Shown here in pieces: positions 10,981-62,701 of a stretch of 64,000 nucleotides of DNA (position 1 is its first letter; the number at the start of each line of letters is the position of its first letter). The notes beneath the pieces are model-generated. The model did not search any database. It saw only the letters and a list, made by a program, of their open reading frames with translations, and was not told the DNA's origin. The stretch is from Candidatus Parcubacteria bacterium (GTDB lineage Bacteria > Patescibacteriota > Minisyncoccia > Phycocordibacterales > UBA918). The DNA lies in the NCBI GenBank assembly GCA_046050355.1, contig JBJOPW010000004.1, forward strand, positions 5,800-69,799. The letters run 5' to 3'. The translations under genes and the position numbers were made by a program.

Positions 10981-11514
10981 ATGGGCTACGCTGTAGAAGA
11001 CGACGAACTGGGTGGTATCGGCTATACCCCGACCTGCAAGAGTTGCGGTTCCGAACATGTATCCAAGGATGCTTGGGCCTGTTGGAATCCGGCTACTGGG
11101 ATGTGGGAACTCGAAACCACTTTCGATCATGAGTACTGTCATGTGTGCGAGGCCGACACGTCGTTCACCTGGCAGCGAGTGGAGAGCGTTCCATCAAGGC
11201 GCGTTCGGGCCTTGAATGACAGGTTCCGCAAGGAAGGCGGAAAGGAACGGTCGGTGGTCGTCACCTCCGGCGTTCTGGCGCTCGGGACAGACTTCCTTGT
11301 CGCCGCGCTCGTAGCCATCCGGGACTTCGACAGCTTCACTGACGACAATGACCCCTGGGGCGAGCATGACTACGGGAAGGTCACCATCCACGGCCAGCCC
11401 GTCTTCTGGAAGATCGACTACTACGATCTCAACCTCGCGGGACGCTCATCCAATCCCGCCAACGACGGCGAGACGCATCGCGTACTGACCGTCATGTTGC
11501 CAAGCGAGTACTAA
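10981..11514 (+). CDS. Hypothetical protein, DUF3768-like (plasmid/ICE-associated)
   Basis: 177 aa with DPWGEHDYG...FWKIDYYD motifs, recalled from ICE-borne proteins. Weak assignment. Confidence 0.35.
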   Translation: MGYAVEDDELGGIGYTPTCKSCGSEHVSKDAWACWNPATGMWELETTFDHEYCHVCEADTSFTWQRVESVPSRRVRALNDRFRKEGGKERSVVVTSGVLALGTDFLVAALVAIRDFDSFTDDNDPWGEHDYGKVTIHGQPVFWKIDYYDLNLAGRSSNPANDGETHRVLTVMLPSEY

Positions 11515-11907
11515 GATCCCGCCTCCCACTGTGGAGGCGGTTTTCGCAATGGCATGTCCGAGACGTCAAGACCCTGAACGTGAAAGAGCACGGCCATGAG
11601 TTCGTCTTCACGAATAGACTGTGACCAGTGCTCAGCCGGTTCTTGTCGCTGTCTAGCCAAACGAGCGGGAATTTCGATATCCTGATACTCGGAACGATAG
11701 AAGGTAGCCTTGGCGTTCGTAGCAAGGTCGGACTGGCGTCAGCCGGAAGGGTGGCAACCCTTCCGGGGTGAAGCGCTGGTACGAGGCCTTGTCGACGACC
11801 GATCACCAAGGCCACCAAACATGCTGAACCGGCACATTGCGCCTTCTAGGTGCTGAGGGAGCATCGACATACACTGCTTGTATTATCAGCAGTAAGTCAC
11901 AAACCAA

Positions 11908-12258
11908 ATGTCCACCGAGTTTGCCCTGGACCTGCGCCTCGCGCGCCGGAAAGCAGGCTTCACGCAGCGCGACTGCGCACATTTATTAGCGATCTCTCCG
12001 TCGGTCTTGTCACAGATGGAAGGCGGCAAGCGCCTGCCGAGCATTCTTCAGATCTGCATGCTGTCCGTCATCTACGGTCGATCCTTCGAAAGCCTTTTTG
12101 GCTTTCTTCTTGACGAGGCTCGTGCCCAGCTCCGGACGCGCATTTTGAGCTTGCCTGAAGATGTCCGTCACTTCGCCGGGACTCGCAACCGCGACTACAG
12201 CATCGACCGACTGGCGCAGCGCTTAGCAGATGAGCAAGACGTACATGGCGGCGCTTAG
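11908..12258 (+). CDS. XRE-family helix-turn-helix transcriptional regulator
   Basis: LRLARRKAGFTQRDCAHLLAISPSVLSQMEGGKR is a canonical XRE HTH. Confidence 0.6.
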   Translation: MSTEFALDLRLARRKAGFTQRDCAHLLAISPSVLSQMEGGKRLPSILQICMLSVIYGRSFESLFGFLLDEARAQLRTRILSLPEDVRHFAGTRNRDYSIDRLAQRLADEQDVHGGA

Positions 12259-12727
12259 GATACTCTCCATTGCGGCAGCCACTGGTCGGATAGCGTACGT
12301 CTATTTGATCGGCGATCGGCTGATGGACTGGCGCATTTCAGACAAGGCTAGTTCGTCTGCGCAAGACGCGAGAGAAGCATCGGCCCATTGGATCGAGACG
12401 CTCCGTCCGGACGTCGTTGTTACGGAGATTCCGGTGTCGAAGACTCGAAAGGGCGACAACACCAGACAGTTGATCGAAGCAATGGCTAAAGTGGCCGAAG
12501 AAGCGGATGTACTGGACGTCAAAGTCACCCGAGAGCAATCCTATGCGAACAAGTACGAAGAGGCCGCTGCATTAGCAGAGAGCTATCCGGAGCTGCTGCC
12601 GTGGGTCCCACGCAAGCGCCGCTTCTTCGACAACGAGCACCGCAATACCGTGCTCTTTGAGGCTTTGGCCCTAGCGCAAGCAATCGTTCGGTCGCCTGCA
12701 ACTACCCTTGGGGCCGCGATGGGATAG
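12230..12727 (+). CDS. Hypothetical protein, co-transcribed with the XRE regulator
   Basis: 165 aa; overlaps the upstream gene by 29 nt; no recognised domain. Confidence 0.35.
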   Translation: MSKTYMAALRILSIAAATGRIAYVYLIGDRLMDWRISDKASSSAQDAREASAHWIETLRPDVVVTEIPVSKTRKGDNTRQLIEAMAKVAEEADVLDVKVTREQSYANKYEEAAALAESYPELLPWVPRKRRFFDNEHRNTVLFEALALAQAIVRSPATTLGAAMG

Positions 12728-12802
12728 TTCACAAAGACGAAATTGTTGACAGGCTGCAACATGGTGTTGCAGCTTTTTTGTACTGGTATTTAGGAGGTAC
12801 CC

Positions 12803-13357
12803 ATGCGCTCATATCATGCCGCTCGCGCGGTTTTTTCTCTCTTCTCTGGGTTGGCCTGGACCGTGATCCTCATCGGAATTCTTGCTGTGTTTCTAGGCAT
12901 TGCACGGGGACGCAGCATAAACCCGTACAATCCAGACCTAGGAGCTGCCGTGGTCGCAATACCCGGAGTCTTGGCTGTCGTATTTGGCTTGGTTATGCTG
13001 GTAATGGCTCAGATGGGCCGCGCCGGGGTTGATACCGCAGAGTATTCTCAGCAGATGCTGCAGGCATCGCGGGATCACATGGAAGTCTCACGACAACTGG
13101 TTCGCCAAGGCGAAAAACTCGAACAGGGCTATGCTGCTCTTGCGGCGAAACTCAGCATACCCCCGTCGGTTTCGTATGATGGTCGCATTTCCACAGCGGA
13201 AGCGTCTTCTTCTGCGGCACCCGCAGCTACACCGCTCTCCGCCACTGGCGAAGGTACGACGCAAAAGGTGGGCTACAGCGACCGGCTCCAGATCGAACAG
13301 GGTATCCCGATGACCACCCTCCAGGGTGCTGACGCGAAGTCTACCGCGTCGTCCTAA
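12803..13357 (+). CDS. Hypothetical membrane protein
   Basis: 184 aa with two N-terminal TM helices and a Ser/Ala-rich C-terminus. Confidence 0.35.
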   Translation: MRSYHAARAVFSLFSGLAWTVILIGILAVFLGIARGRSINPYNPDLGAAVVAIPGVLAVVFGLVMLVMAQMGRAGVDTAEYSQQMLQASRDHMEVSRQLVRQGEKLEQGYAALAAKLSIPPSVSYDGRISTAEASSSAAPAATPLSATGEGTTQKVGYSDRLQIEQGIPMTTLQGADAKSTASS

Positions 13358-13530
13358 TCCCCACACCGGAACACATCCTCTATGGGGACTCTGTATGGGG
13401 GTACATACCGACACATCCTTGGCCATAGCTTCTCAACTTCGTCCCTCAGATCATCCTGACATATGCCACCTTCGTGGCATAGGCTGGTCGGCACCTAGGC
13501 CGACCAGCCGCACCATTACCTGGAGCTTCG

Positions 13531-13890
13531 ATGCGAATTTCGATCTCTCACCATGATGTCCGTAAGGGACTATTGTTCAGGAAGACTATGCACGAAGTCC
13601 ACTTGTCGGTGGCCTTCACCCACGAAGAAAAGCAGATTGTGCGCCAGCGCCGTCTAGGGGATCAGGTCATCCTGCAGCGCCGTCCGGCGAACGCCAAAGT
13701 TGATGATCGCGACAGTAAGTTCGTCCTGCGACTAGGTGACCTGCTTGACGGTCGTACCGACCGCTTTCTCCTCGCAACACCATCTGCAGCAAAAATCTAC
13801 GAGGAAGACCTGATCCGAATGTTGGCCCAAGTGAAGCTTTGGATTTCAGACAATGCAGAGACCGCAGGTCGGACGGTGATTGAACTTTGA
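13531..13890 (+). CDS. Hypothetical protein
   Basis: 119 aa; its stop overlaps the start of the next gene. Confidence 0.3.
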   Translation: MRISISHHDVRKGLLFRKTMHEVHLSVAFTHEEKQIVRQRRLGDQVILQRRPANAKVDDRDSKFVLRLGDLLDGRTDRFLLATPSAAKIYEEDLIRMLAQVKLWISDNAETAGRTVIEL

Positions 13891-15971
13891 GCACAGAACG
13901 CGAGATCAAGGAGTTCTTCAACTCGACGCTCGGATTGGGCGTCCTTTTTGTTTTCCTCCTCCTCGGCGTGGTAGTTGCACCGATATTCCTCATAGGGGCA
14001 GCGGTCTATGTAGTGGGTCGCCTTTATCTTGAAAACCCCGCCAGACTGGAGCGGGTAGCGAGACGAGAGACAGAGATCCTATACAATCACGCGCTCGCCG
14101 GGCAAGTTATCTTGAGCCGTGATGATATTGATGAAATCTTGTCAGCTAGCTGGCCGGAAGAATTGCCATTTCCAACGCGTGCACAGCTGCTTGATCTTGG
14201 CTATGAGCTTTTCCGAGACGAGGGACTTAGTCCAGACATTCCACCAGTTCCGGCACTTTGCAACACGGTGGAAGGGGCAAGATACCGCGACCTGCTTGCG
14301 AGACTAGGACAAGCGCGAACGGATCGTGTGATGGTTACCGCCGCTCTTTCGCAAATTGGAGAAAGTCTTTCGGTCGTCGCGCGGGCAATTCCAAACCTTG
14401 ATGGAGATGTACTTGTTTCTGTCTCTCAGTTCTTGGAACCGGTTGGTCCGACCATCGAAGAGATCATTGCGCCCTTTTATAGGGAGACTGGCTATATCCA
14501 TTTCAAGGCTCTGAGGGAACGCCTCGATCAGAACTTGGAACGGACCCATCGGACAAACCCGGTCTTTCCCCGCGACTACAAGGGTACTGATGCGGTTGAA
14601 ACCTACTTGGCTGGTACCCGGCTCAAAGCTCTCTTCAGCATCAAGACGCCCTTTGAGATCCCCGAAGCTTCACGCTTCGAGCATGTGCACATGGTTGCGG
14701 GAACCGGTCACGGGAAGACTCAGACGCTCCAATACTTCATCGCTAAAGACCTCCTCGACGTCGCGCGGCGTGACAAGTCCATTGTCGTCATTGACAGTCA
14801 GGGCGACCTGATCAGAACGATCCTCGCAGCCAAGCACCTTCCCCCCGAGCGCATCGTCTTGATCGATCCGGAGGACATTGCGTTCCCGGTAGCTCTCAAC
14901 TTGTTTTCGGTCGGCCAAGAACGTCTCACGGGCTACAGCGCGGTCGATCAGGAACGGCTCACCAACTCGATCCTGGAGCTCTATGACTTCGTGCTGGGGT
15001 CACTCCTTGGGTCGGGGATGACGTCGAAGCAGAACGTCATCTTCCGCTATGTCACCAGGCTCATGCTTCATATACCGGACGCTACGATCCACACCCTTCG
15101 GGAGCTCATGGAGCCTGGAGGGACGGTGAAGTATCAAGACGCTATCGACCGGCTGGATGGAACCGCGCGCAAGTTTTTCGCCAGCGAGTTTGACGGCAAG
15201 GAGTTCACGAACACAAAAGCGCAGGTCCTACGTCGCCTCTATGGTGTGCTGGAGAACCGTACCTTCGAACGGATGTTCTCGCACCCAACTTCACGCTTCG
15301 ACATGTTCACCGAGATGAACGCGGGGAAGCTCATTCTGATCAACACGGCGAAATCTCTGCTGAAAGAACAAGGCACGGAGATCTTCGGCCGCTTCTTCAT
15401 CGCCCTGATCGCTCAGGCCGCGCAAGAACGTGCCACCCTGCCAGAGTACGACCGGCTCCCGTGTATGGTTTTCGTGGATGAGGCCCAGGACTACTTCGAC
15501 GAAAACATCGGGATCATCCTCAGTCAGGCACGCAAGTATCGGGTCGGCATGACACTGGCACACCAATATCTTGGACAACTGTCTTCCTCGCTTCAGGAGG
15601 GCGTTGAGGCGAACACGGCAGTCAAACTTGCAGGCGGTGTCTCGGCTCGGGACTCCCGTGCTCTTGCAGGACAAATGGGGGCTGACCCCGACATGATCGC
15701 CCGACAGCCAAAGGGAACGTTTGCTGCCTTTATCCGTGGCGTCACAGAGAAAGCAGTCCCGATCTCGTTCCCGTTCTTTGTCCTAGAGAAATCAGAGAAG
15801 ACGACAGACCAAGAGCGGGCCGAAATCCGGACTTTCAGCCGCAATGCCTATGCGCACGCCTGGGATCGTCCCGAAGAAGACCAACAGCCGACGGAAGCGA
15901 ACAGCGACATTCCTTCCGGAGGTTCAAGAGACGACCGCATAGACCCACTTTCTCCTTCCACAGAGCTATGA
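13887..15971 (+). CDS. Type IV coupling protein (VirD4/TraG/TraD family) with an N-terminal membrane anchor
   Basis: N-terminal TM helices, Walker A VAGTGHGKTQ, Walker B MVFVDEAQDYFD, and TLAHQYLGQL. Confidence 0.7.
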   Translation: MSTEREIKEFFNSTLGLGVLFVFLLLGVVVAPIFLIGAAVYVVGRLYLENPARLERVARRETEILYNHALAGQVILSRDDIDEILSASWPEELPFPTRAQLLDLGYELFRDEGLSPDIPPVPALCNTVEGARYRDLLARLGQARTDRVMVTAALSQIGESLSVVARAIPNLDGDVLVSVSQFLEPVGPTIEEIIAPFYRETGYIHFKALRERLDQNLERTHRTNPVFPRDYKGTDAVETYLAGTRLKALFSIKTPFEIPEASRFEHVHMVAGTGHGKTQTLQYFIAKDLLDVARRDKSIVVIDSQGDLIRTILAAKHLPPERIVLIDPEDIAFPVALNLFSVGQERLTGYSAVDQERLTNSILELYDFVLGSLLGSGMTSKQNVIFRYVTRLMLHIPDATIHTLRELMEPGGTVKYQDAIDRLDGTARKFFASEFDGKEFTNTKAQVLRRLYGVLENRTFERMFSHPTSRFDMFTEMNAGKLILINTAKSLLKEQGTEIFGRFFIALIAQAAQERATLPEYDRLPCMVFVDEAQDYFDENIGIILSQARKYRVGMTLAHQYLGQLSSSLQEGVEANTAVKLAGGVSARDSRALAGQMGADPDMIARQPKGTFAAFIRGVTEKAVPISFPFFVLEKSEKTTDQERAEIRTFSRNAYAHAWDRPEEDQQPTEANSDIPSGGSRDDRIDPLSPSTEL

Positions 15972-15989
15972 TTTTGCTAGCATTTCCTT

Positions 15990-16871
15990 ATGGGAAAGCT
16001 GGATGCTCTCGGTCGCGCAACATTCCATCACATAGCTGAACAATCAGCTGTGCGGGTGACGAATCGCGAGCTTGCTTGGCTCGCGCACATCCATCGACAT
16101 GGCCCCCAGTCGTCCACAGCGCTGTATGATTTGACGGTTTCCACGCACCGCTGCCGCGACACTAGTCTCCGCGCCCTTCAGCGGCTTCGTGCTGGCGGTG
16201 TCCTTTCACTCCCTCGCCAACAGCGCATGACCGAAAGAGCGGAGTTCAATCCGTACATTTACGATGTCACTGAGTTGGGCAAAGGCCACTTGGAAAATCG
16301 CGATCTGCTTGAACCCACTCTCCGCCCAAGTGGGCATTGGTGGCACGCTTACGGTGTCGGTGCGATCACAGCCGCCATCGAGCGCCGCGGTGCCGAGAAA
16401 GGCATTCGCTACATACCGCCTCAGTCAATCTTGGCGCGGGCAAGATGCGAACTTCCGCTACCCACACCTGCTGGCATGGTCATTCCGGATCAGCTATTCG
16501 CCTTGGACTACGGCGGCACCTTCAGAGCCTTTATGCTGGAGCATGACCGTGGGTCTGAACCGCTGTCTTCAAAGGCAGCACGTGAAAGCCTGGAACGAAA
16601 ACTTCATCGATACTCGACGGCTGCATCCAGCGATTTGCATCGTCGGCACTATGGCCTGAAGTCGCCGCTTGTCTTGATGTTCACCTTTGCGTCACGAGCG
16701 CGAGCCGCGCGGTTCTTAGACCTTGTCACCACGAAGTACCCGGTACTGTCTTCCATCGTCATCTTCGCCATTCTGAACGACGATGATCCACTGCTTCTGT
16801 GTTCTCGGGACATTGTCTTGGGTCCCTGGCAACGCGGGTCCGGTGGAACTTTCGAGCTATTCCAATCCTAG
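15990..16871 (+). CDS. Replication-relaxation family protein (putative)
   Basis: 293 aa with an N-terminal wHTH-like region; similarity recalled from the Replic_Relax family. Moderate. Confidence 0.4.
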   Translation: MGKLDALGRATFHHIAEQSAVRVTNRELAWLAHIHRHGPQSSTALYDLTVSTHRCRDTSLRALQRLRAGGVLSLPRQQRMTERAEFNPYIYDVTELGKGHLENRDLLEPTLRPSGHWWHAYGVGAITAAIERRGAEKGIRYIPPQSILARARCELPLPTPAGMVIPDQLFALDYGGTFRAFMLEHDRGSEPLSSKAARESLERKLHRYSTAASSDLHRRHYGLKSPLVLMFTFASRARAARFLDLVTTKYPVLSSIVIFAILNDDDPLLLCSRDIVLGPWQRGSGGTFELFQS

Positions 16872-17025
16872 GCCTAACTGGGGAACTTCGCCCAAGCAGA
16901 AGTTCCACTGTCTAGGGCAGGATGCGGCACGACCGTATTCTGAGCCTGGACCGTTCCTTATCAGAGCTATGCCGCAAGGCCTGCTCACTAGGCATGTGTC
17001 CTTTCCCAGAAACGTGGAGATACCC

Positions 17026-17739
17026 ATGACCCTTATGCTGCACACTGGCGGCGAAGCCATCGACTTCGATGACCTTCGTCTGCTTCCAACACCAGAACCA
17101 ACGGCGAGCCATGTCCCGATACCGCACCACTCGGTGGTGGATATGGTCCGCTACGCGCTCGGCTTCTTCGGTCACGAACTGCTCGAAGAGCATCATGCCG
17201 TCACACCCGACGGGATGAACTACTTCGGCGTCCTGTCTCTGCGGTCGCCATATGGTGACTACACCGACATGGTAGGCCTCAGGAACAGCCACAAAAAGCA
17301 GTTTCCAATTGGCATCGCCATCGGAAGCAGGGTGTTCGTCTGCGACAACCTAGCCTTCCATGCTGACCATGTGATCCGACGAAAGCACACGGCGAACGCC
17401 AAACGAGATCTTCCTGGCCTCGTCAGTGAAGTGATCGAGCCGTTGCATTTGGCACGGCGCGACCAAGCGCAGAGAATTGAAAGATACAAAGCCTTGGCGC
17501 TACCCGATGCACTGGCTGATCAAGCCATCATGGCCATGTACCGTCGCGGGGTGATCAACTTGACCCGCATCGGCGACGTTCTGACGATCTACGAGGAGCC
17601 ACCGCATGATTGGGGTGACAAGACGCCATGGCGACTCTTCAATGCTGCGACGTTCGCCTTAATGGGCAAGGTGGCAGAAAATCCCACCCATACCAAACGT
17701 CTACACGATGTAATTGATGGGATATGTGCAAAGGCATGA
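17026..17739 (+). CDS. DUF932-family protein (ICE/plasmid-associated)
   Basis: GGAG ribosome-binding site before the ATG at 17026. Motifs recalled from DUF932. The longer ORF starting at 16783 overlaps the upstream gene. Confidence 0.5.
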   Translation: MTLMLHTGGEAIDFDDLRLLPTPEPTASHVPIPHHSVVDMVRYALGFFGHELLEEHHAVTPDGMNYFGVLSLRSPYGDYTDMVGLRNSHKKQFPIGIAIGSRVFVCDNLAFHADHVIRRKHTANAKRDLPGLVSEVIEPLHLARRDQAQRIERYKALALPDALADQAIMAMYRRGVINLTRIGDVLTIYEEPPHDWGDKTPWRLFNAATFALMGKVAENPTHTKRLHDVIDGICAKA

Positions 17740-17771
17740 AGGAAAAGGACGGCTCTTGAGCCGTCCTTATT

Positions 17772-20765
17772 CTAGACGTGCTTCATAACTACATCGACAG
17801 AGGTGGCTTTAATGAAGCGAGCCGGGTTCGGTTCAGTGGCAATGGCCTGGAAATGCTTCTCGCCGCATTTGATTTTAGCGCCCTCATGGTGGCGTAGATC
17901 ATCCCACCAGCCGCTGCTCTTCGTTTCGACAACGAAATAGAGCTTTTCCTCGCCGTCCTGGTCGATGAGCACCGCCCAGTCGGGGTTGTAGGTGCCGAGC
18001 GGGGTCGGAACTTTGAACCATGCGGGCAGCTTGGCGTAGACTTTCACGGCCTCGTTGGCTTCAAGGTCTTCAGCGAAGGACTTCTCAGTGCCCTCGGAAT
18101 CGTAGACCACGTACTCGAAGACCGACTTTTGCGCCGGGATGGCGTTCTTGAGGTAGGTTTTCAGCTCTTCCTGCTCGAACAGCTCCTGGCAGTAGTAGTC
18201 ATCGTCGCCAATGCGGCGGTACTTGATACCGTCCACCAGGGCGAGGCGCTTGGTGCGGTTGATGGCTTCGGCGGCCTGGTCAATAAACTGCTGCGGGTTG
18301 CGCTTGAAGTCCTCGATGCGGTCGCTCTTGAGCAAAATATCGACAATGCTGCCGCGCGTGAGCTGGGTCTTGTCCTGAAGCTCGGTGATGATGTCCGGCA
18401 GCTCGATGTCATCTTCATTTATCGTGGTGTAGGCGCTCTTGGCCCCGTCTTCCTTCGTCGAAACACCGCCCTTGCCGATTTCCAGTCCAGCCTTGCGGAA
18501 GCGCGCGCGGGTCTTGGTTATCGGTTCGGAATTGCGGATGTTCTCCGCGCAGTCCTCGATCAGTTTGGCGTTATCGAATTCCACCCGGTAGGTGGTCTTG
18601 TGCTTGATGCGCTCCCAAAGGGCCTTGAACTCGGGGCTTTGCAAGATGGCCTCGCGGGTCTTGATGACCTTGCGGTCGTCGGCGTTCTTGATGTCGAGGC
18701 GACCGGCGAGCTTCTTGAGGATGGCGCTGATCTCGCCAGCCTGGGCGGTGAACTCTTCGGGTAGCGCAAGGGTGCCAGCCTTGAGGGCCGTGCGCAGGCT
18801 GTCCTGAACCCGTCCCTTGGCGTCAATCAGCTCTGCGGCCTTGAGATGCTCCCAAAGCTTCTCGGAAGCAGTCGCGCCAAGCGGCTTAGCTTCGCCATCT
18901 TCCGACTGCACCATGATCGCAGCGAACTGATGCGGTTCGACGACGCCGAACTTGATGCCGGTATCCTGCTCGATCTCGCTCTGGAGGTTCTTGGCGAAAT
19001 CCTCGTAGCTTTCCGTGGCAATCACGGTGAGCGTGTTGACTTCGTGGCCCCGCAAGCGTTGGCCGCTCTGGTCAACACAAAGGCGAAGCCCGCGACCGAT
19101 GGTCTGCCGACGCTCGCGCTCGGTTCCCATGTCGCGCAGGGTGCAAATCTGGAAGACATTGGGGTTGTCCCAACCTTCGCGGAGCGCGGAGTGCGAGAAG
19201 ATGAACTTCAGCTTCGTGTCGAAGCTGAGCAGCTTCTCCTTTTCCTTCATAATCAGGTTGTAGGCCCGCTCGGCGTTGTCGCGGTTGGACTGGTTGTTTT
19301 CTGCCGTGTCCGTCCAGCCCCCCTTCTTGTCGATGGAGAAATAGCCGTTGTGTAGCTCTTCGGCGTCCTGACCGGGGTCGATCTGGGCGAACAGCGTATT
19401 GTAGGCCGGGCTCTTGGCGAGCTTCTTGTATTCCTCTTCGAACATGACAGCATACTTGCCCTTGTGGGCGTTTCCGGCTTCGTCGTACTGGCGGTAGTGC
19501 TCGACGCTGTCGATGAAGAAGAGGCTGAGCACCTTGATCGGGCGGCCTGTCTCTTTGAAGCGAAGCTCCTTGTCGAGGTGCTCCTTGATGGTGCGGCGGA
19601 TCATGAGCCGTTTTTGCTCATCAGGATCGACACCACCGTAGGACATGCCAGGCTTAAGTACCTTGTCTAGGCCAGGTCCCTGAAGCTCGATAGTTTGCTC
19701 GGGGCCAACGGTGATTGTTGCGATCTGCATGTTCTCGTAGAGGGAACGGTTGGTGAGCTGCTCCAGGTCGTCACCATCCTCGACGGTCACAATCTTGCGC
19801 TTCACATCCTTGCCGCTGGCGATGTCGAGCTCGACCTTGGCGGTGATGGAGCCTTGCCTATTGTGCGTCGAAAGCAGCTTCACGTAAGGCTTGTTGTGGC
19901 CGCCCTCTATCTCAAGCGAAGCAACCTCGATTTGCTTCACTAGGCCGCGCTCGTAGGCGTCCACGGCATCGAGCCGGTAGACCATGTGGTGCTTTTGCAA
20001 GTGAGTGGCTGAATAGCGAAGGGTACAAAGCGCGTTCATATCCTTTAGTGCCTGTCGCCCTGCACCTTGCAGACCGCCATCGACGCTTTGAGGCTCATCG
20101 ACGACAATGATGGGGTTGGTCGCCTTAATCAGGTCAATAGGCTTTTCCCCGCCTGTGTTCTCGCTTTCCCGATAGATAACATTCGTCTGGCGGGACAGAG
20201 CCTGAATGGTGGACACCATTATCTGAATAGTCGAGCTTGTAGCGAAATTGCGAACCTGCCCAAGCTTCGATGATTCATAGAGGAAATACTCGTAGCCCTT
20301 GGCCTTGGGGTAGAGGTTCTCGAAGTGGTCGCGGGTGATCTCCAGCGTCTTGTAGACGCCTTCTTTGATGGCGACAGACGGCACCACGATGACGAACTTC
20401 GTGAAGCCGTACTCGCGATTAAGCTCGAAAATCGTCCTGAGATAAACGTAGGTCTTCCCGGTTCCCGTCTCCATCTCGACGGTGAAGTCGCCGGATTGCA
20501 GCAGCTTGTCCTGGGCCAGGCCATTGCGTAGCTGCACCTCTGCCAGGTTATCCAGCAATTCTTCATCGATCAGCTGAAGCCGATTGCCCACGCCAAGATC
20601 ACTCTCGATAAGCCCAAGCGTGGCCTGAGACCCGGTCTGCGGACGGTAGGTCACGGTGAACTCTGAACGGGACACTTCCTGCCCCTTGAACAGCTCAACA
20701 ACCGATGCAATCGCCGCTTGCTGGTAATCAAGGTTGTCTTCGAAATGTAGTTTCATTGCAGGCAT
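17772..20765 (-). CDS. res: Type III restriction-modification Res subunit (helicase-nuclease)
   Basis: 997 aa. Helicase motif I is METGTGKTY and motif II is VVDEPQ. Located directly downstream of Mod. Confidence 0.85.
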   Translation of the reverse strand: MPAMKLHFEDNLDYQQAAIASVVELFKGQEVSRSEFTVTYRPQTGSQATLGLIESDLGVGNRLQLIDEELLDNLAEVQLRNGLAQDKLLQSGDFTVEMETGTGKTYVYLRTIFELNREYGFTKFVIVVPSVAIKEGVYKTLEITRDHFENLYPKAKGYEYFLYESSKLGQVRNFATSSTIQIMVSTIQALSRQTNVIYRESENTGGEKPIDLIKATNPIIVVDEPQSVDGGLQGAGRQALKDMNALCTLRYSATHLQKHHMVYRLDAVDAYERGLVKQIEVASLEIEGGHNKPYVKLLSTHNRQGSITAKVELDIASGKDVKRKIVTVEDGDDLEQLTNRSLYENMQIATITVGPEQTIELQGPGLDKVLKPGMSYGGVDPDEQKRLMIRRTIKEHLDKELRFKETGRPIKVLSLFFIDSVEHYRQYDEAGNAHKGKYAVMFEEEYKKLAKSPAYNTLFAQIDPGQDAEELHNGYFSIDKKGGWTDTAENNQSNRDNAERAYNLIMKEKEKLLSFDTKLKFIFSHSALREGWDNPNVFQICTLRDMGTERERRQTIGRGLRLCVDQSGQRLRGHEVNTLTVIATESYEDFAKNLQSEIEQDTGIKFGVVEPHQFAAIMVQSEDGEAKPLGATASEKLWEHLKAAELIDAKGRVQDSLRTALKAGTLALPEEFTAQAGEISAILKKLAGRLDIKNADDRKVIKTREAILQSPEFKALWERIKHKTTYRVEFDNAKLIEDCAENIRNSEPITKTRARFRKAGLEIGKGGVSTKEDGAKSAYTTINEDDIELPDIITELQDKTQLTRGSIVDILLKSDRIEDFKRNPQQFIDQAAEAINRTKRLALVDGIKYRRIGDDDYYCQELFEQEELKTYLKNAIPAQKSVFEYVVYDSEGTEKSFAEDLEANEAVKVYAKLPAWFKVPTPLGTYNPDWAVLIDQDGEEKLYFVVETKSSGWWDDLRHHEGAKIKCGEKHFQAIATEPNPARFIKATSVDVVMKHV

Positions 20766-20776
20766 ACTCGATCAGG

Positions 20777-22639
20777 TTACAGGCTGCGAACGTGGCTGAT
20801 GCCGTTCTGCTCAAGGATGGCCACCATGTTGGTCTTGGCGATGTCATCGGCGAAGGCACTGTCCCGGAAGAAGACATGGGAGTCAGTCTCAGGCTCGAGC
20901 TCCCTGTGCCAATCCAGAATACCTTGAGCGAGACTGTCCACGAGGGTTGCTTCAACTGAGGTATCAAGACATGCGAATAGCACGCCATAACCGACGCTGT
21001 AGACTGATTTTCCGGCAACTTTCCGTTCTTCTATTGGGGCAGTCAGCTCTATTCCACGCTTCAACAAAAGTTCGCATAGTATATCTGCTTCGGACCGACC
21101 TTCAACAAGGTGATCCTTATTTAGAAGCAAGGCTCCCTCCATATCATTGCGATCTGGGGTCCAGGCTTTGATACCAGATCGATTCAGCTGGAAATAGCGA
21201 AAGCCTAGATCCTTCACCTTTCCTTGCATTGTTTTTCCAGCTCTCCTAATTCTTTCAGCCGACAGCTTTGCTATGTTTTCGTATCCGGCAGCTCCAGCTA
21301 CAGAACTTTTGTCAATTTCCTCTGGCAACTGAATCTGGATAAACCTACGCGTCCCGCCATCTTCTGCATTGGCGGAGAGGACAGCATGGGCCGTGGTCGA
21401 AGAGCCGGCAAAAAAATCTATAATCAGATCATCTTTGCTGTCACTCTGTGACAACTGAATCATCCGACGAATCAATCTTGTGGGCTTGGGATTGTCGAAC
21501 ATTCCGGCCATTCCTAAGGCCTTCAATTCACTATTGGATTCGTGATTATGGCCGACTTCGTCATATGGCCACAATGTCGTTGGCGTAACCCCATCTTTTA
21601 TTTCGCTCAGAAAGCTTTTTCTTGATGGAGTCTGGTCTCCTTTTTCTCCAAACCAAATCTCATCACCTTCATCCATCATTTTCATAGATGCATCATTGAA
21701 ACGTCGATAGGTTCCAGCAGGTGGGGTCCATGTGACCCCATTTTTGAAGGTGTAGCTCGAGTTATTTGTTCCACTCTTGGCGTGCAAAGGCGTTGCCTTC
21801 CACGGTCCTTTGGGGTGACCATCTGGGTTCTTATAGGCACTTACTTGGTCTTCCGTGCGAGGAAGTTGATTTAGGACAAAACTATCTTTGTTTTTGGCGT
21901 AGCATAGGACATGATCATGATTTGATGAAAACCACTTAGCGTCGTTGGCGCGAGTGTATTTCTTTTGCCAAACGACATTAGCAATGAAGTTCTCTTCGCC
22001 AAATATTTCATCACAAATTTTTCGCAGGTTCGCCTGTTCCGTGTCATCTATTGTAACGAAAATTACGCCCTCATCGGATAGTAGGGTTCTTGCGAGGCGG
22101 ATTCTGGGATACATCATATTCAACCAATTGGTGTGTAATCTCCCGCCCGTTTCCATATTGGATGAAAATTTCATTCCATCCGAGGCAATCTGGCCGGTAT
22201 ACTTAAGGTAGGTCTCAAGATTGTCTTGGAATCTGTCGGGATAGATGAATTCATTCCCAGTGTTATAGGGCGGATCGATAAAAATCATTCTAGCTTTTCC
22301 TGCATAACTTTTTTGCAGGAGCTTCAGCGATTCAAGGTTATCCCCCTCAATAAAAACATTCCGAGTTGTGGCCCAATCGACACTTTCATCCTTTCGCGGT
22401 ACGAGCGTCCCTGTGCTTGGCGTGAGAGCAATTTGTCGCGCTTGCTTCTTGCCATGCCAGGTTAGGCCATACTTTTCCTCACCCTCATCTAGCACTTTTG
22501 CATCGCCAAGCAGCTGGCGAAGAACGTCAATATTCATCCCGCCTTCGGTGAAAGCGTCGGGAAACAGCGCCTTTAGCTTGGCAATGTTCTCGGCGATGAT
22601 GTTGGCGCTCTGGCCGTCTTCGTGGGTGACTTTTTTCAT
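20777..22639 (-). CDS. mod: Type III restriction-modification Mod subunit (N6-adenine DNA methyltransferase)
   Basis: Catalytic motif IV is IFIDPPYNTGNEFIY (DPPY). 620 aa. Confidence 0.85.
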   Translation of the reverse strand: MKKVTHEDGQSANIIAENIAKLKALFPDAFTEGGMNIDVLRQLLGDAKVLDEGEEKYGLTWHGKKQARQIALTPSTGTLVPRKDESVDWATTRNVFIEGDNLESLKLLQKSYAGKARMIFIDPPYNTGNEFIYPDRFQDNLETYLKYTGQIASDGMKFSSNMETGGRLHTNWLNMMYPRIRLARTLLSDEGVIFVTIDDTEQANLRKICDEIFGEENFIANVVWQKKYTRANDAKWFSSNHDHVLCYAKNKDSFVLNQLPRTEDQVSAYKNPDGHPKGPWKATPLHAKSGTNNSSYTFKNGVTWTPPAGTYRRFNDASMKMMDEGDEIWFGEKGDQTPSRKSFLSEIKDGVTPTTLWPYDEVGHNHESNSELKALGMAGMFDNPKPTRLIRRMIQLSQSDSKDDLIIDFFAGSSTTAHAVLSANAEDGGTRRFIQIQLPEEIDKSSVAGAAGYENIAKLSAERIRRAGKTMQGKVKDLGFRYFQLNRSGIKAWTPDRNDMEGALLLNKDHLVEGRSEADILCELLLKRGIELTAPIEERKVAGKSVYSVGYGVLFACLDTSVEATLVDSLAQGILDWHRELEPETDSHVFFRDSAFADDIAKTNMVAILEQNGISHVRSL

Positions 22640-22655
22640 GGTCTTCTTCTTGAAT

Positions 22656-23420
22656 TTAGTTGCTAAAGTTCAGGCGAGCTTCGAGCTTGAGTATAGCATC
22701 TTTTCGTTCCCTGATCATGCTGTTCAGGGTGATCTTGCTTCCCATCTGGTGCTCGCGATTCAGCGTGGTCCGGAGCTCAGCAATCTCGCGTTCCAGTTTG
22801 TGAATCTCCCCGAGAATGACAGTGTGTTCCTTGGATGCCGAGATCGAGGCCGAAACGAACGTCCCGGTCCTGTCCGAGGTGATCAGCCCGATGACCTGGC
22901 TCTGGAATGCTTCATAGAGGGCATAAAAGTTGGTGGCGGGAAGCCGGTGAAGCTGAATGGCCTCCAGGAAGGCCGCCTGTGATGTCGAAGGCTTGTTCGG
23001 ATCGATCCATTCGGTCTGCCAACGATCCACCAACACGAGCTTGGACTTGTCGGCCTGGTTGATCCGCTTTTCCGCAACACTGATGGCGATCTTGCCCGCG
23101 TGCTCGAACGCCAGGATCAGCGGATATGGAATGGCCCGGTGCATGAAGGCTGCGACGCGATTGAGGCGAGCAGGATTCGACAGCTCGACCGAAAGGACGG
23201 CGATCTCCAGGTATTCTCGCTCGCTGTCCTGGAAGGGTGCGATGTTGATGGTGTCGGGCTTGAGCGTGTATTGCCAGCGGATGCGCCCGACATCCTCGCT
23301 CAGCGCCTTCCTGTCGGTCTGGTCTAGCTCTGCGTGATCGAGGAACATCTTCTTGTAGACCGGCTTGTCGAGCAAGCAGGCTTCAGGGATGCCAAGGCTG
23401 GAGAGGAAGGCGTCGATCAT
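22656..23420 (-). CDS. DUF4391-domain protein
   Basis: 254 aa. Sits between the SNF2 helicase and Mod in the same operon, a recurrent DUF4391 neighbourhood. Its start overlaps the helicase stop. Confidence 0.55.
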   Translation of the reverse strand: MIDAFLSSLGIPEACLLDKPVYKKMFLDHAELDQTDRKALSEDVGRIRWQYTLKPDTINIAPFQDSEREYLEIAVLSVELSNPARLNRVAAFMHRAIPYPLILAFEHAGKIAISVAEKRINQADKSKLVLVDRWQTEWIDPNKPSTSQAAFLEAIQLHRLPATNFYALYEAFQSQVIGLITSDRTGTFVSASISASKEHTVILGEIHKLEREIAELRTTLNREHQMGSKITLNSMIRERKDAILKLEARLNFSN

Positions 23421-26400
23421 GCTGCGGCTTGGATAACGAGGAAGCTCACAACCTCAAAATCGTCTCCGCCCTTGAGGTGATCTTTGGTGAGCGCCGTACC
23501 GCCACGGGAAAAGAGGCTCTCGACGCCCTTTTCTTCAGTCTTGCCGACGACGCTCTCTATGGCGCGATCCAGCAGCTCTCGATAGGCGCTCATATCGCGC
23601 CCGTTCTTGGTTTTGGTGTTAAGGGCGTCGATGCTGGCGCGGTCTAGCTCAGTCGCAGACGCGGCGAGCTTCTTGTATACGTCCAGGCTCTTTTTGGCCT
23701 GAAGGTGATTGAACACGATGGTGCCCGCCTCGGAGACATAGATGAGGTAGAATGGCGTGAGCGCGTAGCTGTCTTCGTTCTGCACCTTACCCTTAAGGTC
23801 GCGCAGGCAGAAGATCACGCCTGGCACGGCTTGGTCAATGTTGGGCGACACAACCGCGTGAAAGCCGGTTGGTGAGCCTTCCAGGCGCTTCAGGTTTTCC
23901 TTCATGAAGCTGGACAAATCCATGCGGAAGTCGTTCAGCGTCATGTCGGTGATGGAGACGCTGCCATCCATGTCCTCAAGATCGATGACGGCATCTTGGA
24001 GCTGCTGCATTTGTTTGCGACGGTATTCCAGATCGTTCATCTGCTTGTTTTCGTCATATTCGATGACGTTCTCTTCGCCGGTCGCGGAGATGTCCAAGAG
24101 CACCATGCGACCGCTCACGCGGGCTTCGAGGTTGATATACTCGTCGAGCTGCATGTTAGGCCAGAAATTGGTGAGCTGGATCGCGGCGTTCTTCGATCCT
24201 AAGCGGTCCACGCGCCCGAAGCGCTGGATGATCCGCACCGGGTTCCAGTGGATGTCGTAATTGACTAGCATGTCGCAGTCCTGAAGGTTCTGGCCTTCCG
24301 AAATGCAGTCCGTGGCGATCAGGATGTCGATGTCAGTCGTGGCATCGGGGTCGATCTTGTCGCGCTCTTTTGAAACCGGCGAAAAATTAGTCAGGATGCT
24401 GTTGAGGTCGCGCGGCAAGCCGTCGATGGTGCAGCGGTTGGTTCCACTACCCGTCACGAGCGCGCTGTGGAGGCCAAATTCCTTCAGCGCCCAGGTGTGT
24501 ATGTGCTTGAAAAGATATTCAGCCGTGTCGGAGAAGGCGGTGAAAACGATGACCTTGTTGTTGCCAGGGTTGATCGGCGTTTTGAGCTTGGCGGCAATGG
24601 TGTCCTTCAGCTTTTGGAGCTTGGCATCGTCCGCAGCCGCAATCTTCCGCGCCTCGTCGAGCAGGTAGCCTAAAAGGATGTGATCGGCTTCGAGGTCCTG
24701 ACGCATCCGGATGAGGTCCAGGTCCTGGATCAGCACCTTGACCTTTCGGCCAATCATAAGGTCTTCGAGTTCGGGAGAATCTGCCTCGATGTCCTCGATG
24801 AGCAATTCCTCGATTTCCGTAGCCTCATGAGCATCGATCTTCGCGAGGAAGTTGCCGACCTGAGCATGAATCTTCTCGACGGTGAGAGCGAAGGAATGGA
24901 TCGAGCTCTCCATCCGCTTAAGCATGTTGACGCGCATGAGGTGGATCAGGCTGCGCTCCCGGTCCACCTGCTTGAGCGTCGATTTCCCACCTTTGACTTG
25001 TTGGTCGTACTTGCGGCTGTAATCGTCCTGCTTGTCGGCGCGCACATAATCCAGGGGCGCGTAGGCCGCCAGAGAAAGCTTCTTGATTGAGCGGTTGATG
25101 TCCTTGAGCGGCGGGAACCGGCCATCCTTGTCGATGTCCGACTTCACATTCTGCGGCTTCAGACGCTCGGGGAATTTCCCGATTTCCGCAGTGTCGTAAT
25201 ACTTCTCGATATGCCGCCGCGACCGCGCGATGGTAAGCAGGTCGAGTAGCTTGAAATAGCCGAAGTTAAGGCTTTCGAGCAGCCCTTCGGTGGTGCGGCT
25301 TTCAGCCGGTAGCTTCAGCCAGGTGTTGAACTGCGTCTGCGCGCGACGGAGTGTAACTTCTATGCTTTGAATGCCCGCATCGGCTAGCGCTTTGTCCTGC
25401 CCTTCGGTGATGAAGGCGACCTGGTTCTTCAGGTCATTCAGGCGATTGTTCACCGGGGTGGCGGAGAGCATCAGGACTTTGGTTTTGACGCCTTTCCGGA
25501 TTACCTCGTCCATCAGCCGCTGGTAGCGAGTGATCTTGTCTTTGCTCGGGTTGTTGTTTCGGAAATTGTGGGACTCGTCGATGACGATGAGGTCGTAGTT
25601 GCCCCAGTTGATCGTCTCCAGGTTAATCTCACCGGAGCGACCCGTCTCGCGGCTCAAGTCTGTGTGGTTCAGGACATCAAAGTTGAAGCGATCAGCCGCA
25701 AGCAAGTTGCGCTTGTCGTTGATCGTGTAGACAGTCCAGTTTTCTCGGAGCTTCTTGGGCGCGAGCACCAGAACGCGGTCATTGCGCAGTTCGTAGTATT
25801 TTATGACGGCCAGCGCCTCGAACGTCTTACCCAAACCGACGCTGTCGGCGATGATGCAACCGTTGTAACGCTCAAGCTTGTCGATAGCGCCGAGAACGCC
25901 GTCTTTCTGGAACTTGTAGAGCTTGTTCCAAACTAACGTGTCCTTAAAGCCAGTCTTCGACCGTATGATGCTTTCCTCATCGATTTCCTCGATGAAGTCC
26001 CTGAAGATATTGAACAGGGTGATGAAGTAGAGAAGGTTCGCAGGCTTATCGGAGGCGAGGAAATCAAGGCTTTCAAGCACCGCATCCTTTGCATTGCGAA
26101 CGGCAGTTGGATCATTCCAGATTGTCTCGAACCAGTTGAGCAACTGCTTCGTTGCCTCCGGGTCTTTCGCCACGGTGTTCATCGCAAAGCTGTTGGATCG
26201 CACAACGCCAAGACCAGCGGCTGTAAAGTCCGAAGTGCCAGCGACGGCAACCACTTCACCAAGGGGTGGTTGAATGTGAAAAATATTCTGCGCGATAGGC
26301 GCTCCTGCGAGCTGTCGGACCTGAGCCTTCTTTCGAACCCATTCCGCACACTCGGCGGCGATGCGCTGGAGGTTCAGCTCATTCTTCAGGCCAATCTCTT

Positions 26401-26668
26401 CAGTGGTCCCGGCTAGAGGCAGCGGGAGAGCGGCATCAGGTCGCGCCAAGAGAATGCGCAAGTCCTGAACCTTGTTGAGCTCTGACTTCAGGGCGGAATA
26501 ACCAAAAACGGAAAACCAGGCGGTCAAAACCAACATTTTCGAGTCTGGGCTCAAGGCCGCTCGAAGTTCGTCTACGACCTTGCCGTGGACCTTGTTATCT
26601 AGAAGCATGTGGACTTTTGCCTTGCCTGAAGAGTCGTCGTATGTGGTTGATTTTTTATGGGAATCCAT
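23417..26668 (-). CDS. SNF2-family helicase with an N-terminal PLD-like nuclease domain
   Basis: SNF2 motifs I (ADSVGLGKT), II (DLIVIDESHNFRN), and V/VI (QRFGRVDRLGS). The N-terminal ~250 aa are PLD-like. Start placed at 26668 from an internal ATG with an AAAGG ribosome-binding site. Confidence 0.75.
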   Translation of the reverse strand: MDSHKKSTTYDDSSGKAKVHMLLDNKVHGKVVDELRAALSPDSKMLVLTAWFSVFGYSALKSELNKVQDLRILLARPDAALPLPLAGTTEEIGLKNELNLQRIAAECAEWVRKKAQVRQLAGAPIAQNIFHIQPPLGEVVAVAGTSDFTAAGLGVVRSNSFAMNTVAKDPEATKQLLNWFETIWNDPTAVRNAKDAVLESLDFLASDKPANLLYFITLFNIFRDFIEEIDEESIIRSKTGFKDTLVWNKLYKFQKDGVLGAIDKLERYNGCIIADSVGLGKTFEALAVIKYYELRNDRVLVLAPKKLRENWTVYTINDKRNLLAADRFNFDVLNHTDLSRETGRSGEINLETINWGNYDLIVIDESHNFRNNNPSKDKITRYQRLMDEVIRKGVKTKVLMLSATPVNNRLNDLKNQVAFITEGQDKALADAGIQSIEVTLRRAQTQFNTWLKLPAESRTTEGLLESLNFGYFKLLDLLTIARSRRHIEKYYDTAEIGKFPERLKPQNVKSDIDKDGRFPPLKDINRSIKKLSLAAYAPLDYVRADKQDDYSRKYDQQVKGGKSTLKQVDRERSLIHLMRVNMLKRMESSIHSFALTVEKIHAQVGNFLAKIDAHEATEIEELLIEDIEADSPELEDLMIGRKVKVLIQDLDLIRMRQDLEADHILLGYLLDEARKIAAADDAKLQKLKDTIAAKLKTPINPGNNKVIVFTAFSDTAEYLFKHIHTWALKEFGLHSALVTGSGTNRCTIDGLPRDLNSILTNFSPVSKERDKIDPDATTDIDILIATDCISEGQNLQDCDMLVNYDIHWNPVRIIQRFGRVDRLGSKNAAIQLTNFWPNMQLDEYINLEARVSGRMVLLDISATGEENVIEYDENKQMNDLEYRRKQMQQLQDAVIDLEDMDGSVSITDMTLNDFRMDLSSFMKENLKRLEGSPTGFHAVVSPNIDQAVPGVIFCLRDLKGKVQNEDSYALTPFYLIYVSEAGTIVFNHLQAKKSLDVYKKLAASATELDRASIDALNTKTKNGRDMSAYRELLDRAIESVVGKTEEKGVESLFSRGGTALTKDHLKGGDDFEVVSFLVIQAAA

Positions 26669-26774
26669 GCCTTTTCTAGTCTCATTATCATTCCACAGAT
26701 CGAGACTACAAGCAAAGGTTGGGTGACCGGATTCTGCAGACCCGGCCACCCGCGCTCCCACAAGGGGAGGGTCG

Positions 26775-26960
26775 TCAGGTCTCGCGGCGCGTGATCCGCT
26801 CTTGGAGCCATTCCAGCACTTCGCTTTCGACCCATCCGACCCGGTTCGGCCCGAGGTTTACCCGCTTGGGGAATGCTCCGACCTTTTCCAGCCTCGCGAC
26901 GTGTTGCGGCGAGTACAGGACCAACTCTTTGAGCTGGCGCTTTGAAAGTATCCTCATCAC
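26775..26960 (-). CDS. alpA: AlpA-family phage/island transcriptional regulator (Xis-like HTH)
   Basis: 61 aa; LSKRQLKELVLYSPQHVARLEKVGAFPKRVNLGPNRVGWVESEVLEWL is the AlpA motif. Confidence 0.7.
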   Translation of the reverse strand: MMRILSKRQLKELVLYSPQHVARLEKVGAFPKRVNLGPNRVGWVESEVLEWLQERITRRET

Positions 26961-27142
26961 GATCTCTCCATGGTGAAGAGCATCGCGATGCCCAGGGTTA
27001 CGACGTTCCTAGGTGTGAGGAGAGTAGTGCGAGATTAGTTGCCATGCCATAGAGTTGTGCCGCTCTTGATCCGTTCCTGCATGGCCAGTGTGCGCTTTGA
27101 TTGAACCGGGATAGGGTTTTCGATTAGACTCCTGCACATGAA

Positions 27143-61412: not shown

Positions 61413-62265
61413 GATGGAGTGATTATAGCAAAAGAAAAGACCGCCCTCCAACGGTCCCTCTAAAAAGAAGAAGTTGGTGGGCGGTCTACCGACGCGCTGC
61501 GCCCGAGACGATGTCGTCCCTGGTGCTGCTGGTGATAAGGCCGTCGATGTAGTCGCTCTCGGCTTTTTCGGCCTGGGTTTCACCGCTGTACCGAAAAAGC
61601 GTCTTGATCAATTTCCACAAAGATCTCACTGTAGCCTCCAGCTTCTGTCGTTAACTATTCGAGTGTACTTTAACACTCATAATCGTATTTGTCAAACAAA
61701 ATCATACAAAGTTTGATGTCGTAAAACCAAAATCACACCCGTGGGGTGTGATTTTGGTATCAGCTAAGCTGCCTCTTAGTGCTTTGCTTCGTTTGGTGAG
61801 ACTACTTTCGACCCTTTTTCTCAGCCTTCTTGGCGAGCATTTCCTGCTTCTTGGCGAGACGCTTTGGTGACTTGTAAGGCGGGGTCTTGGTCTTCTTCTT
61901 TGGACTCAGTGCAATGATTCGTGTCATATGGGCGCTATTATACAGTAAATTCGGATTTAGGTAAGGGGGGTAGCCGATAGGATTCGAACCTTACAGGTTC
62001 AGTACACCTTGTCGCTATTTAATTTCCTATCGTCATAAAATAGCTGGCAAGGTCTTCGAATCCTGACGAAAGTGCTCCCATAAAGGATTCGGTCACGCTC
62101 ATGGATAATTTATGTCACTACGTTCATAAATTATACTCATTCGCCCGACCCGGAATCGCTGATTCCTCGCTTTGGAAAAAACTCCTCATATCGCGATTCT
62201 TTCGAATCCTGGTCGCGGAGCATATAAAAGTAAAGGCCACATTACTGTGGCCTAAACTTTTAATG

Positions 62266-62573
62266 CTCCGCGACCAGGATTCGAACCTGGAACCAACTCC
62301 TTACACGTATCCTCTAATTCCTTAAAGGGGTGGACTATATCATCATCCGACGCATTTGCGTTGAGGATGGAATGCGCTTCGACGAACACTTTGTTCGGCT
62401 ACTCCCCGAGGGGATAGTCTCTGAACCTTCAACATCAATTAAGATGAAGCTTGGCTGCTGATTACCCGCGTCAACACGTTAGGGCTTCCAGCAATTCACA
62501 TTCTTTTCATTCCGGAGTTACCTCCGGAAGCTGCCTTTGACAGGGAGCTGCTCTACCGTTGAGCTATCGCGGA
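62266..62573 (-). tRNA. tRNA-Asn (anticodon GTT) interrupted by a 236-nt group I intron in the anticodon loop
   Basis: 5' exon 62540..62573 reads TCCGCGA-TA-GCTCAACGGTAGAGC-A-GCTCC-CTGT. 3' exon 62266..62303 reads TAA-GGAGT-TGGTT-CCAGGTTCGAATCCTGG-TCGCGGA-G. It has a U1:A72 pair and a G73 discriminator. Confidence 0.6.
62304..62539 (-). ncRNA. Group I self-splicing intron (no ORF)
   Basis: P AATTGCTGGAA, Q AATCAGCAGCC, R GTTCAGAGACTA, S GATATAGTCC. P1 pairs CTGT with GCAG, giving a U.G at the 5' splice site. The intron ends in G. Confidence 0.6.
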
Positions 62574-62701
62574 AGATAGCTACTCGTTTCCGTACCTGGA
62601 AACGAGTGCATGTATTGTACAGAAATTTCTATAATATTCAACCCAAGGATATTTGGGTATTGGGGAGGGCATTTTGGTAGCTGCTTGCTATAATTATCTA
62701 T

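Follow-up and report, generated by a model that had tools for sequence, protein, structure and literature searches.

Within the window, by which we mean the whole 64,000-nt stretch of DNA analysed here, the two halves of a canonical tRNA are separated by 236 nt. The locus thus raises the questions of what the intervening sequence is, which tRNA the joined halves would form, and how the arrangement relates to the interrupted tRNA genes already known from bacteria. We consider it highly probable that the locus is a Patescibacteria tRNA-Asn(GUU) gene, split between positions 35 and 36 by a compact 236-nt intron of subgroup IA that carries no homing-endonuclease gene.

Exons and flanking signals of the interrupted gene

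The gene runs along the minus strand (62573..62266), a strand left unnamed in an earlier note on this DNA. Its exons and flanking signals are as follows.

62266..62573, minus strand: complete interrupted tRNA-Asn(GUU) gene, as read from the sequence; 308-nt precursor, CCA not encoded
62540..62573, minus strand: 5' exon, tRNA positions 1-35; 34 nt, position 17 absent
62266..62303, minus strand: 3' exon, tRNA positions 36-73; 38 nt, begins U36 A37 A38
62614..62641, minus strand: promoter-like site TTGAAT-16-TACAAT (consensus scan), some 40 nt ahead of the first tRNA position
62234..62253, minus strand: terminator-like hairpin AGGCCACA-GUAA-UGUGGCCU, then a U-rich tract; 12 nt past the tRNA 3' end

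The earlier note had described two tRNA halves 236 nt apart, with an acceptor stem, a D arm, an anticodon stem and a T arm, and each of these parts lies where the note had placed it. Specifically, the 5' exon (TCCGCGA-TA-GCTC-AACGGTA-GAGC-A-GCTCC-CTGT) contains the acceptor strand TCCGCGA, the D arm GCTC/GAGC and the anticodon-stem strand GCTCC, followed by CTGT, so that it ends in C32 U33 G34 U35. The 3' exon (TAA-GGAGT-TGGTT-CCAGG-TTCGAAT-CCTGG-TCGCGGA-G) contains TAA, GGAGT, the T arm CCAGG-TTCGAAT-CCTGG, the acceptor strand TCGCGGA and G73. Removal of the 236-nt gap (62539..62304) in silico gives a canonical 72-nt tRNA, which ARAGORN calls tRNA-Asn(gtt). The tRNA has the U1-A72 pair and G73 pointed out in the note, which we take to be features of bacterial tRNA-Asn (E. 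coli, B. subtilis); they are common to all published interrupted Asn genes and the window tRNA. Published tRNA-Asn genes that contain an intron can be aligned with the precursor from end to end.

The 32 nt around the promoter-like site are identical in L111, a syntenic metagenome contig that carries an intron-less copy of the gene, and the site may well act as the promoter. As predicted elements, the promoter-like site and the terminator-like hairpin bound the tRNA-Asn transcription unit.

The flanks contain several other repeats. A perfect 10-bp hairpin (ACTCGTTTCC/GGAAACGAGT, 62582-62607) separates the promoter-like site from tRNA position 1; L111 lacks this hairpin, though the promoter-like stretch directly upstream is identical. 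At the other end, the tRNA-Asn 3' end is repeated in inverted orientation 29 nt past the gene (62201-62228, plus strand, facing 62258-62285). This copy spans the T loop through G73 and the first trailer bases; combined with the 3' end of the gene itself, it makes up a near-palindrome of 85 nt that encloses the terminator hairpin. A further T-loop-like fragment, the third, is located at 62055-62065. Neither ARAGORN in intron and relaxed modes nor an E-value-level Rfam scan gave support for a second hidden interrupted tRNA at 61965-62075 or 62201-62228, where T-loop-like fragments occur. L111 carries the same blocks in a different order, and L006, L111 and L052 have terminator palindromes with stems that start inside the tRNA 3' acceptor strand (GTCGCGGAG-CAAATGAAAA...TTTTCATTTG-CTCCGCGAC). 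The near-palindrome may have been left behind by recombination or integration at the 3' end of the tRNA, or it may be a long terminator maintained by selection.

Architecture of the intron

The earlier note had called the intervening sequence a group I intron and had proposed an Rfam search as a check. The search upheld the fold rather than rejecting it: the group I model RF00028 matches 62553..62311 over its entire length (model positions 1-253 of 253) with a score of 79.2 bits (gathering threshold 50 bits) and an E-value of 1.8e-18. Covariation of the fold agrees with this result. The elements of the intron are as follows.

62304..62539, minus strand: group I intron, subgroup IA type, 236 nt (RF00028); without homing-endonuclease ORF
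62531..62543, minus strand: P1; C32-G, U33-A, G34-C, U35.G and intron C-G, with an AAA loop; CUGU(c)/(G)GCAG
62511..62528, minus strand: P2 hairpin, 7 bp, GUAA loop; 5/7 pairs compensatory
62497..62503, minus strand: P3 5' strand, partner 62376-62370; 4/7 pairs compensatory
62425..62493, minus strand: P4-P5-P5a-P6-P6a domain, holding the P and Q elements (RF00028, canonical pairs, covariation)
62415..62421, minus strand: P7 5' strand (R element), paired with 62337-62332 in a pseudoknot with P3
62383..62414, minus strand: P7.1 hairpin (62414-62403) and P7.2 hairpin (62397-62383), between P7 and P3'
62370..62376, minus strand: P3 3' strand (canonical pairs, covariation)
62344..62369, minus strand: P8 and P8a hairpin (canonical pairs, covariation)
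62332..62337, minus strand: P7 3' strand (S element) (canonical pairs; invariant)
62311..62328, minus strand: P9 hairpin, 7 bp, GGAA loop (RF00028); 5/7 pairs compensatory
62304, minus strand: terminal guanosine (omega-G); 3' splice site between 62304 and 62303

All four conserved core elements that had been recognized by eye are present on the minus strand, namely P (AATTGCTGGAA, 62496-62486), Q (AATCAGCAGCC, 62463-62453), R (GTTCAGAGACTA, 62426-62415) and S (GATATAGTCC, 62341-62332). The R and S elements contribute to P7, the guanosine-binding helix of group I introns.

The P1 helix CTGT/GCAG with U.G at the splice site, also predicted previously, is present and invariant in homologues. The internal guide GGCAG occupies 62535-62531, and the 5' splice site follows 62540. 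P1 of the window intron consists of four exon pairs and one intron pair; the three exon pairs and the U.G are invariant in 11/11 and 8/8 sequences of two alignments. The first intron base covaries with its P1 partner (AU in 3, CG in 3, GC in 1 and GU in 1), which indicates that P1 extends across the 35/36 junction. Position 31 faces its opposite base as a C.C mismatch, as it does in other Paceibacteria members, and P10 is weak in the window intron. At the 3' end, the junction GUG/UAA (the slash marks the splice site) is kept in 8/8 close relatives.

The whole fold is made of canonical pairs in the window (93/93 for the cloverleaf, P1-P9, P7.1 and P7.2; 72/72 for the intron's share). To this fold we aligned eight sequences, namely the window, four metagenome relatives and three published Paceibacteria sequences. 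In this alignment, 93.6% of the cells are paired, compared with 76.5% in shuffles and 35-45% when the partners are slid, and 54/93 pairs show compensatory changes; none of 500 shuffles reaches any of the five measures. In an independent RNAalifold run on another set of 11 sequences, the cloverleaf, P1-P6, P8 and P9 are recovered, with 50/69 pairs compensatory. The minimum free energy fold of the intron alone recovers P2-P6, P7.1, P7.2, P8 and P9 (z = -3.1). Specifically, P3, P4, P5, P6a, P8 and P9 covary, while P6 and P7, including all six P7 pairs, are invariant in 8/8 sequences. Because the P6 and P7 pairs never vary, covariation is silent on these two helices and speaks neither for nor against them.

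Relative to the general Rfam model, the stretch that forms P7.1 and P7.2 is a 36-nt insertion. Its pairs are canonical: in P7.1, 2/4 pairs are compensatory and 100% of cells are paired, and in P7.2, 3/4 outer pairs are compensatory. The presence of extra P7.1 and P7.2 helices between P7 and P3' is the hallmark of subgroup IA. By this architecture, the window intron is a group I intron of subgroup IA type. In the classification used by Nakagawa et al. (PMC13011429), it would be expected to fall under IA1, the label given in their Table S5 to the Asn 35/36 introns that were compared. It contains no plausible ORF: the largest overlapping frames encode 74 aa (opposite strand) and 45 aa (gene strand), and both extend into the 3' exon.

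The host tRNA is read as Asn(GUU)

Two pairs of junctions yield a 7-nt anticodon loop in the window precursor. Splicing after U35, with ...GUG/UAA at the 3' junction, would give the loop CUGUUAA and the anticodon GUU (Asn). Splicing after U33, with ...ACG/UGUAA at the 3' junction, would give the loop CUUGUAA and the anticodon UGU (Thr). The latter alternative had been named in the earlier note, and ARAGORN -i reports exactly this, tRNA-Thr(tgt) i(33,236); both junctions follow a U and precede an intron that ends in G. Four lines of evidence favour the Asn reading: intron-less relatives, the empty site in L111, the pairing in P1 and the identity features of the tRNA.

For intron-less relatives, metagenome contigs were scanned with GGTAGAGCAGCTCCCTKKNAA (KK at positions 34-35), which matches either anticodon as well as the interrupted gene. 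Among the matches listed, 107 of 120 are tRNA-Lys(UUU) and 13 are informative. The latter include at least eight intron-less Asn(GTT) genes with the same tRNA body (L111, L049, L038, L039, L043, L052, L091 and L095), at least four intron-containing genes with the same exon 1 (L006, L013, L110 and L054), and one TGT tRNA, which has the acceptor stem GCCGGCA, a different D loop and A as base 73. The ratio of eight to four holds among the matches listed and is no estimate of frequency.

In the intron-less tRNA gene of L111, exon 1 (...CTGT) runs directly into exon 2 (TAAGG...). The 5' exon of the window is identical to the 5' part of this gene, the 3' exon matches it with 100% identity over 40 nt, and ARAGORN calls it tRNA-Asn(gtt). 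With T as the last base of exon 1 and G as that of the intron, the insertion point has no alternative placement and lies between T35 and T36. Judged from these comparisons, the intron interrupts a tRNA-Asn(GUU) gene between positions 35 and 36, in agreement with the earlier proposal that splicing after U35 gives GUU; a homologue described by Nakagawa et al. (PMC13011429) supports the same reading.

A tRNA-Thr(UGU) gene with an intron at 33/34, spliced after U33 and ending in ...ACG, is on the other hand very improbable, despite the ARAGORN output and the formal equivalence of the two junctions. The empty-site allele in L111 reads CCCTGTTAAGG, not CCCTTGTAAGG. In P1, U33 pairs with A, and it is the U35.G wobble that is invariant in all 15 homologues (11/11 and 8/8 in the two alignments). 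The tRNA body with U1-A72 and G73 is common to at least eight intron-less Asn(GTT) genes among the matches listed, while the sole TGT tRNA on this anticodon stem among those matches has G1-C72 and A73 and differs in its D loop. Furthermore, the two-base shift is a recurrent error, as ARAGORN and tFind often mis-call Asn 35/36 genes as Thr(UGU) 33/34, and the spliced product of a homologue has been sequenced as Asn (PMC13011429). A Thr(UGU) host was therefore rejected: the ligated exons match intron-less GTT genes, and the body of the TGT tRNA differs.

A further possible ARAGORN mis-call was encountered at about 4633-4708 of L033, where the label Tyr(gta) is given to a tRNA of 76 nt whose variable loop is short. 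Its loop CTTGTAA can be read as Thr(UGU), with a G27.A43 mismatch.

Genomic context and the empty site

The window is chromosomal, as it encodes TopA, RelA/SpoT, ParB, DNA polymerase III, a hibernation factor and four other tRNAs. TopA homologues are 76-95% identical, and all named ones come from Ca. Pace-, Parcu-, Nomura- or Kaiserbacteria or from Patescibacteria; relatives of YecM are found in genome bins of Kaiserbacteria and Saccharibacteria. The names of these homologues, for one protein and two YecM matches, suggest that the host belongs to the ultra-small Patescibacteria (Parcubacteria/Paceibacteria-like). A blastn search against phage genomes returned weak matches to unrelated phages with 20-23% coverage; because these are limited to the conserved core, the locus is not phage-derived.

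Another part of the window differs in composition. From about 8000 to 27000, the GC content is 0.53-0.58, compared with 0.43-0.50 at the 3' end of the window. This stretch encodes a large serine recombinase adjoining tRNA-Trp, an ATPase resembling T4SS coupling proteins, an SNF2 helicase, and a type III restriction enzyme with its methylase, and looks like a horizontally acquired island. An RF02649 ('Ruegeria trans44 sRNA') match at 26729-26990 (minus strand) scores 174.6 bits, compared with a gathering score of 108. It lies directly upstream of, and overlaps the start of, a 1114-aa SNF2-type helicase ORF (23417-26761). RF02649 is an alphaproteobacterial sRNA family, yet the closest named relatives of the window are Patescibacteria.

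L111 is syntenic with the window: the upstream genes are 72-80% identical and the downstream blocks 82-100%, including a 43-nt block with 100% identity. Judged by the flanking genes, L111, without the intron, is a closer relative of the window than L006, which has it. Two other searches reached no comparable site. A search with the neighbouring YecM protein yielded two short contigs from candidate-phyla genome bins, neither of which has a tRNA or intron nearby, and the contigs matched via PepE (Logan) stop before they reach the tRNA. Near-identical contigs are present in SRR35355747 and SRR35179846.

The occurrence of tRNA-Asn genes with and without the intron on near-identical exons points to gain or loss of the intron within the lineage. 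Possible routes for an intron without an endonuclease are reverse splicing and recombination with spliced copies. The window and the syntenic intron-less L111 form a clean pair for the study of intron gain and loss in Patescibacteria. If the gene were the sole tRNA-Asn gene, GTP-dependent splicing might gate the supply of Asn-tRNA in this minimal-genome bacterium, a regulatory speculation raised by Nakagawa et al. (PMC13011429). The joint proposal, that the intron is still being gained or lost in Paceibacteria lineages and that GTP-dependent splicing gates the supply where the gene is the only one, appears rather unlikely to us as a whole.

Proposed splicing pathway and the state of the window copy

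Transcription from the gene's own promoter would probably produce a precursor of about 340 nt, whose intron would adopt the P1-P9 fold, including P7.1 and P7.2. C32 U33 G34 U35 would pair with the internal guide GCAG, and the U35.G wobble would mark the 5' splice site. A free guanosine bound in P7 would attack after U35. The terminal G (62304) would then replace this guanosine, and the 3'-OH of U35 would attack before U36 (62303). The exons would thereby be joined into a 72-nt tRNA with the anticodon loop CUGUUAA, which would read ...CCCUGUUAAGG... in ligated form. In putative end-processing steps, the 5' leader and the 3' trailer would be trimmed and CCA would be added, because it is not encoded in the gene.

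Catalysis by the window copy is expected by analogy with a homologue that uses the same junction. The intron of GCA_016700035.1 self-splices in vitro, and its ligated tRNA has been sequenced; mutation of its omega-G to C blocks exon ligation (PMC13011429).

Two readings would deny that the locus is a working gene of this kind. According to one, it is a decayed, non-splicing relic, that is, a tRNA pseudogene, and another tRNA-Asn is encoded elsewhere in the genome. The visible part of the genome amounts to 64 kb, the activity of the window copy is expected from homology, and rearrangement of the locus is evident from pieces of the tRNA 3' end nearby, inverted copies among them, all of which would fit such a history. 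Decay, however, has left no mark on the gene itself: all helices are intact, the promoter-like site is preserved, and every core position that is invariant in homologues (including the U.G, omega-G and the P, Q, R and S elements) is kept. In one relative, with flanking sequences that are by now only about 72% identical, an intact gene has exactly the same exons as the window. Both interrupted genes that have been assayed are the sole copies in their genomes (PMC13011429). We thus regard the relic as improbable. According to the other reading, the resemblance is due to chance, or the assembly is a chimera of tRNA halves and unrelated structured sequence; all that speaks for it is that the gene is missed by default tRNA finders. 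We give this next to no credence. Besides the RF00028 match, the same architecture, with compensatory changes, is found in four metagenome contigs (L006, L013, L110 and L054) and in 11 published genomes; the E-value of 1.8e-18 and the independent contigs and genomes effectively exclude chance or chimera. The preferred reading thus remains an intact tRNA-Asn(GUU) gene interrupted by a group I intron that probably splices.

Consequences for annotation

Default ARAGORN and the Rfam tRNA model make no call for the tRNA-Asn gene, and intron-aware ARAGORN calls it tRNA-Thr. A genome annotated by such tools would seem to lack tRNA-Asn, and its completeness would be estimated too low. The same pitfall has been described by Nakagawa et al. 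(PMC13011429). The main value of the present case is therefore practical, as a warning for annotation. In addition, it adds a compact 236-nt, ORF-less member to the class of subgroup IA introns at 35/36 of tRNA-Asn; knowledge of group I introns in general is unchanged by it.

Comparison with known introns

The earlier note had stressed that a site between positions 35 and 36 of tRNA-Asn is not one of the classic locations. The four classical cases do not include this site. It is not new, however, as it was described by Williams in 2020 and by Nakagawa et al. in 2026 (PMC13011429). Nakagawa et al. credit its first listing, as 'Asn.4Ug', to Williams, whose preprint expanded the four classical cases to 21 (bioRxiv 10.1101/2020.01.27.920355). 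Nakagawa et al. (2026, mSystems) reported group I introns at 35/36 in 15 tRNA-Asn(GUU) and three tRNA-Asp genes of Patescibacteria (PMC13011429). Among the 28 introns that they found at this site, 25 belong to subgroup IA and 19 come from Patescibacteria; the other hosts are Cyanobacteriota, Nitrospirota, Bacillota_A, Bipolaricaulota and Pseudomonadota (PMC13011429). The intron type, the site and the host group are thus already described, with splicing demonstrated, in papers from 2020-2026, and the window intron is a further member.

The window intron shares with the class of Nakagawa et al. the host tRNA, the 35/36 site, the junctions CUGU/...GUG/UAA, the GCAGC guide, the core sequence, the P7.1/P7.2 architecture, the phylum (judged by the closest named relatives of TopA) and the ARAGORN mis-call as Thr(UGU) 33/34. 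Aligned end-to-end with the 11 sequences of Table S3 that were compared, the window precursor has 59-70% identity, and 86 columns are invariant across 11 sequences. Among these, the nearest published relative is from Paceibacteria GCA_016699245.1 (70%), and the experimentally validated GCA_016700035.1 has 67% identity. The window sequence differs from every Table S3 entry compared. It is also short (236 nt), without the P1 extension hairpin of GCA_016699245.1 and L006 and without the homing-endonuclease ORF that is present in some members of the class. 

The Nitrospirota introns at 35/36 of tRNA-Asn(GUU), as far as the three rows of Table S5 go, are classified as IA1 (PMC13011429). In the entries available, they resemble the window intron in site, host tRNA, and a very similar P1/P2 region and core (...ugcagcuuccacaggaaacugugguugaaaa...). 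They belong to another phylum, and they differ from the window intron in their greater length (248-347 nt) and in their peripheral helices.

The classical bacterial tRNA introns, in Leu(UAA) at 34/35, fMet at 33/34, and Ile2(CAU) and Arg(CCU) at 36/37, are all IC3 (Azoarcus, Anabaena). Like them, the window intron is a group I ribozyme in a tRNA anticodon loop, with U.G at the 5' site and an omega-G, and most of them also lack an ORF. Unlike them, the window intron is of subgroup IA, with P7.1 and P7.2 present, and is located at 35/36 in tRNA-Asn, which places it outside the IC3 tRNA introns.

The P7.1/P7.2 pair between P7 and P3' is presumably shared with the phage introns of subgroup IA (T4 td, nrdB and sunY), whose R and S elements we likewise take to be very similar to those of the window intron. 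The group I classification behind this comparison is reportedly that of Michel and Westhof from 1990. Phage IA introns of this kind interrupt protein-coding genes and often carry homing endonucleases; unlike the T4 introns, the window intron resides in a tRNA gene and has no ORF.
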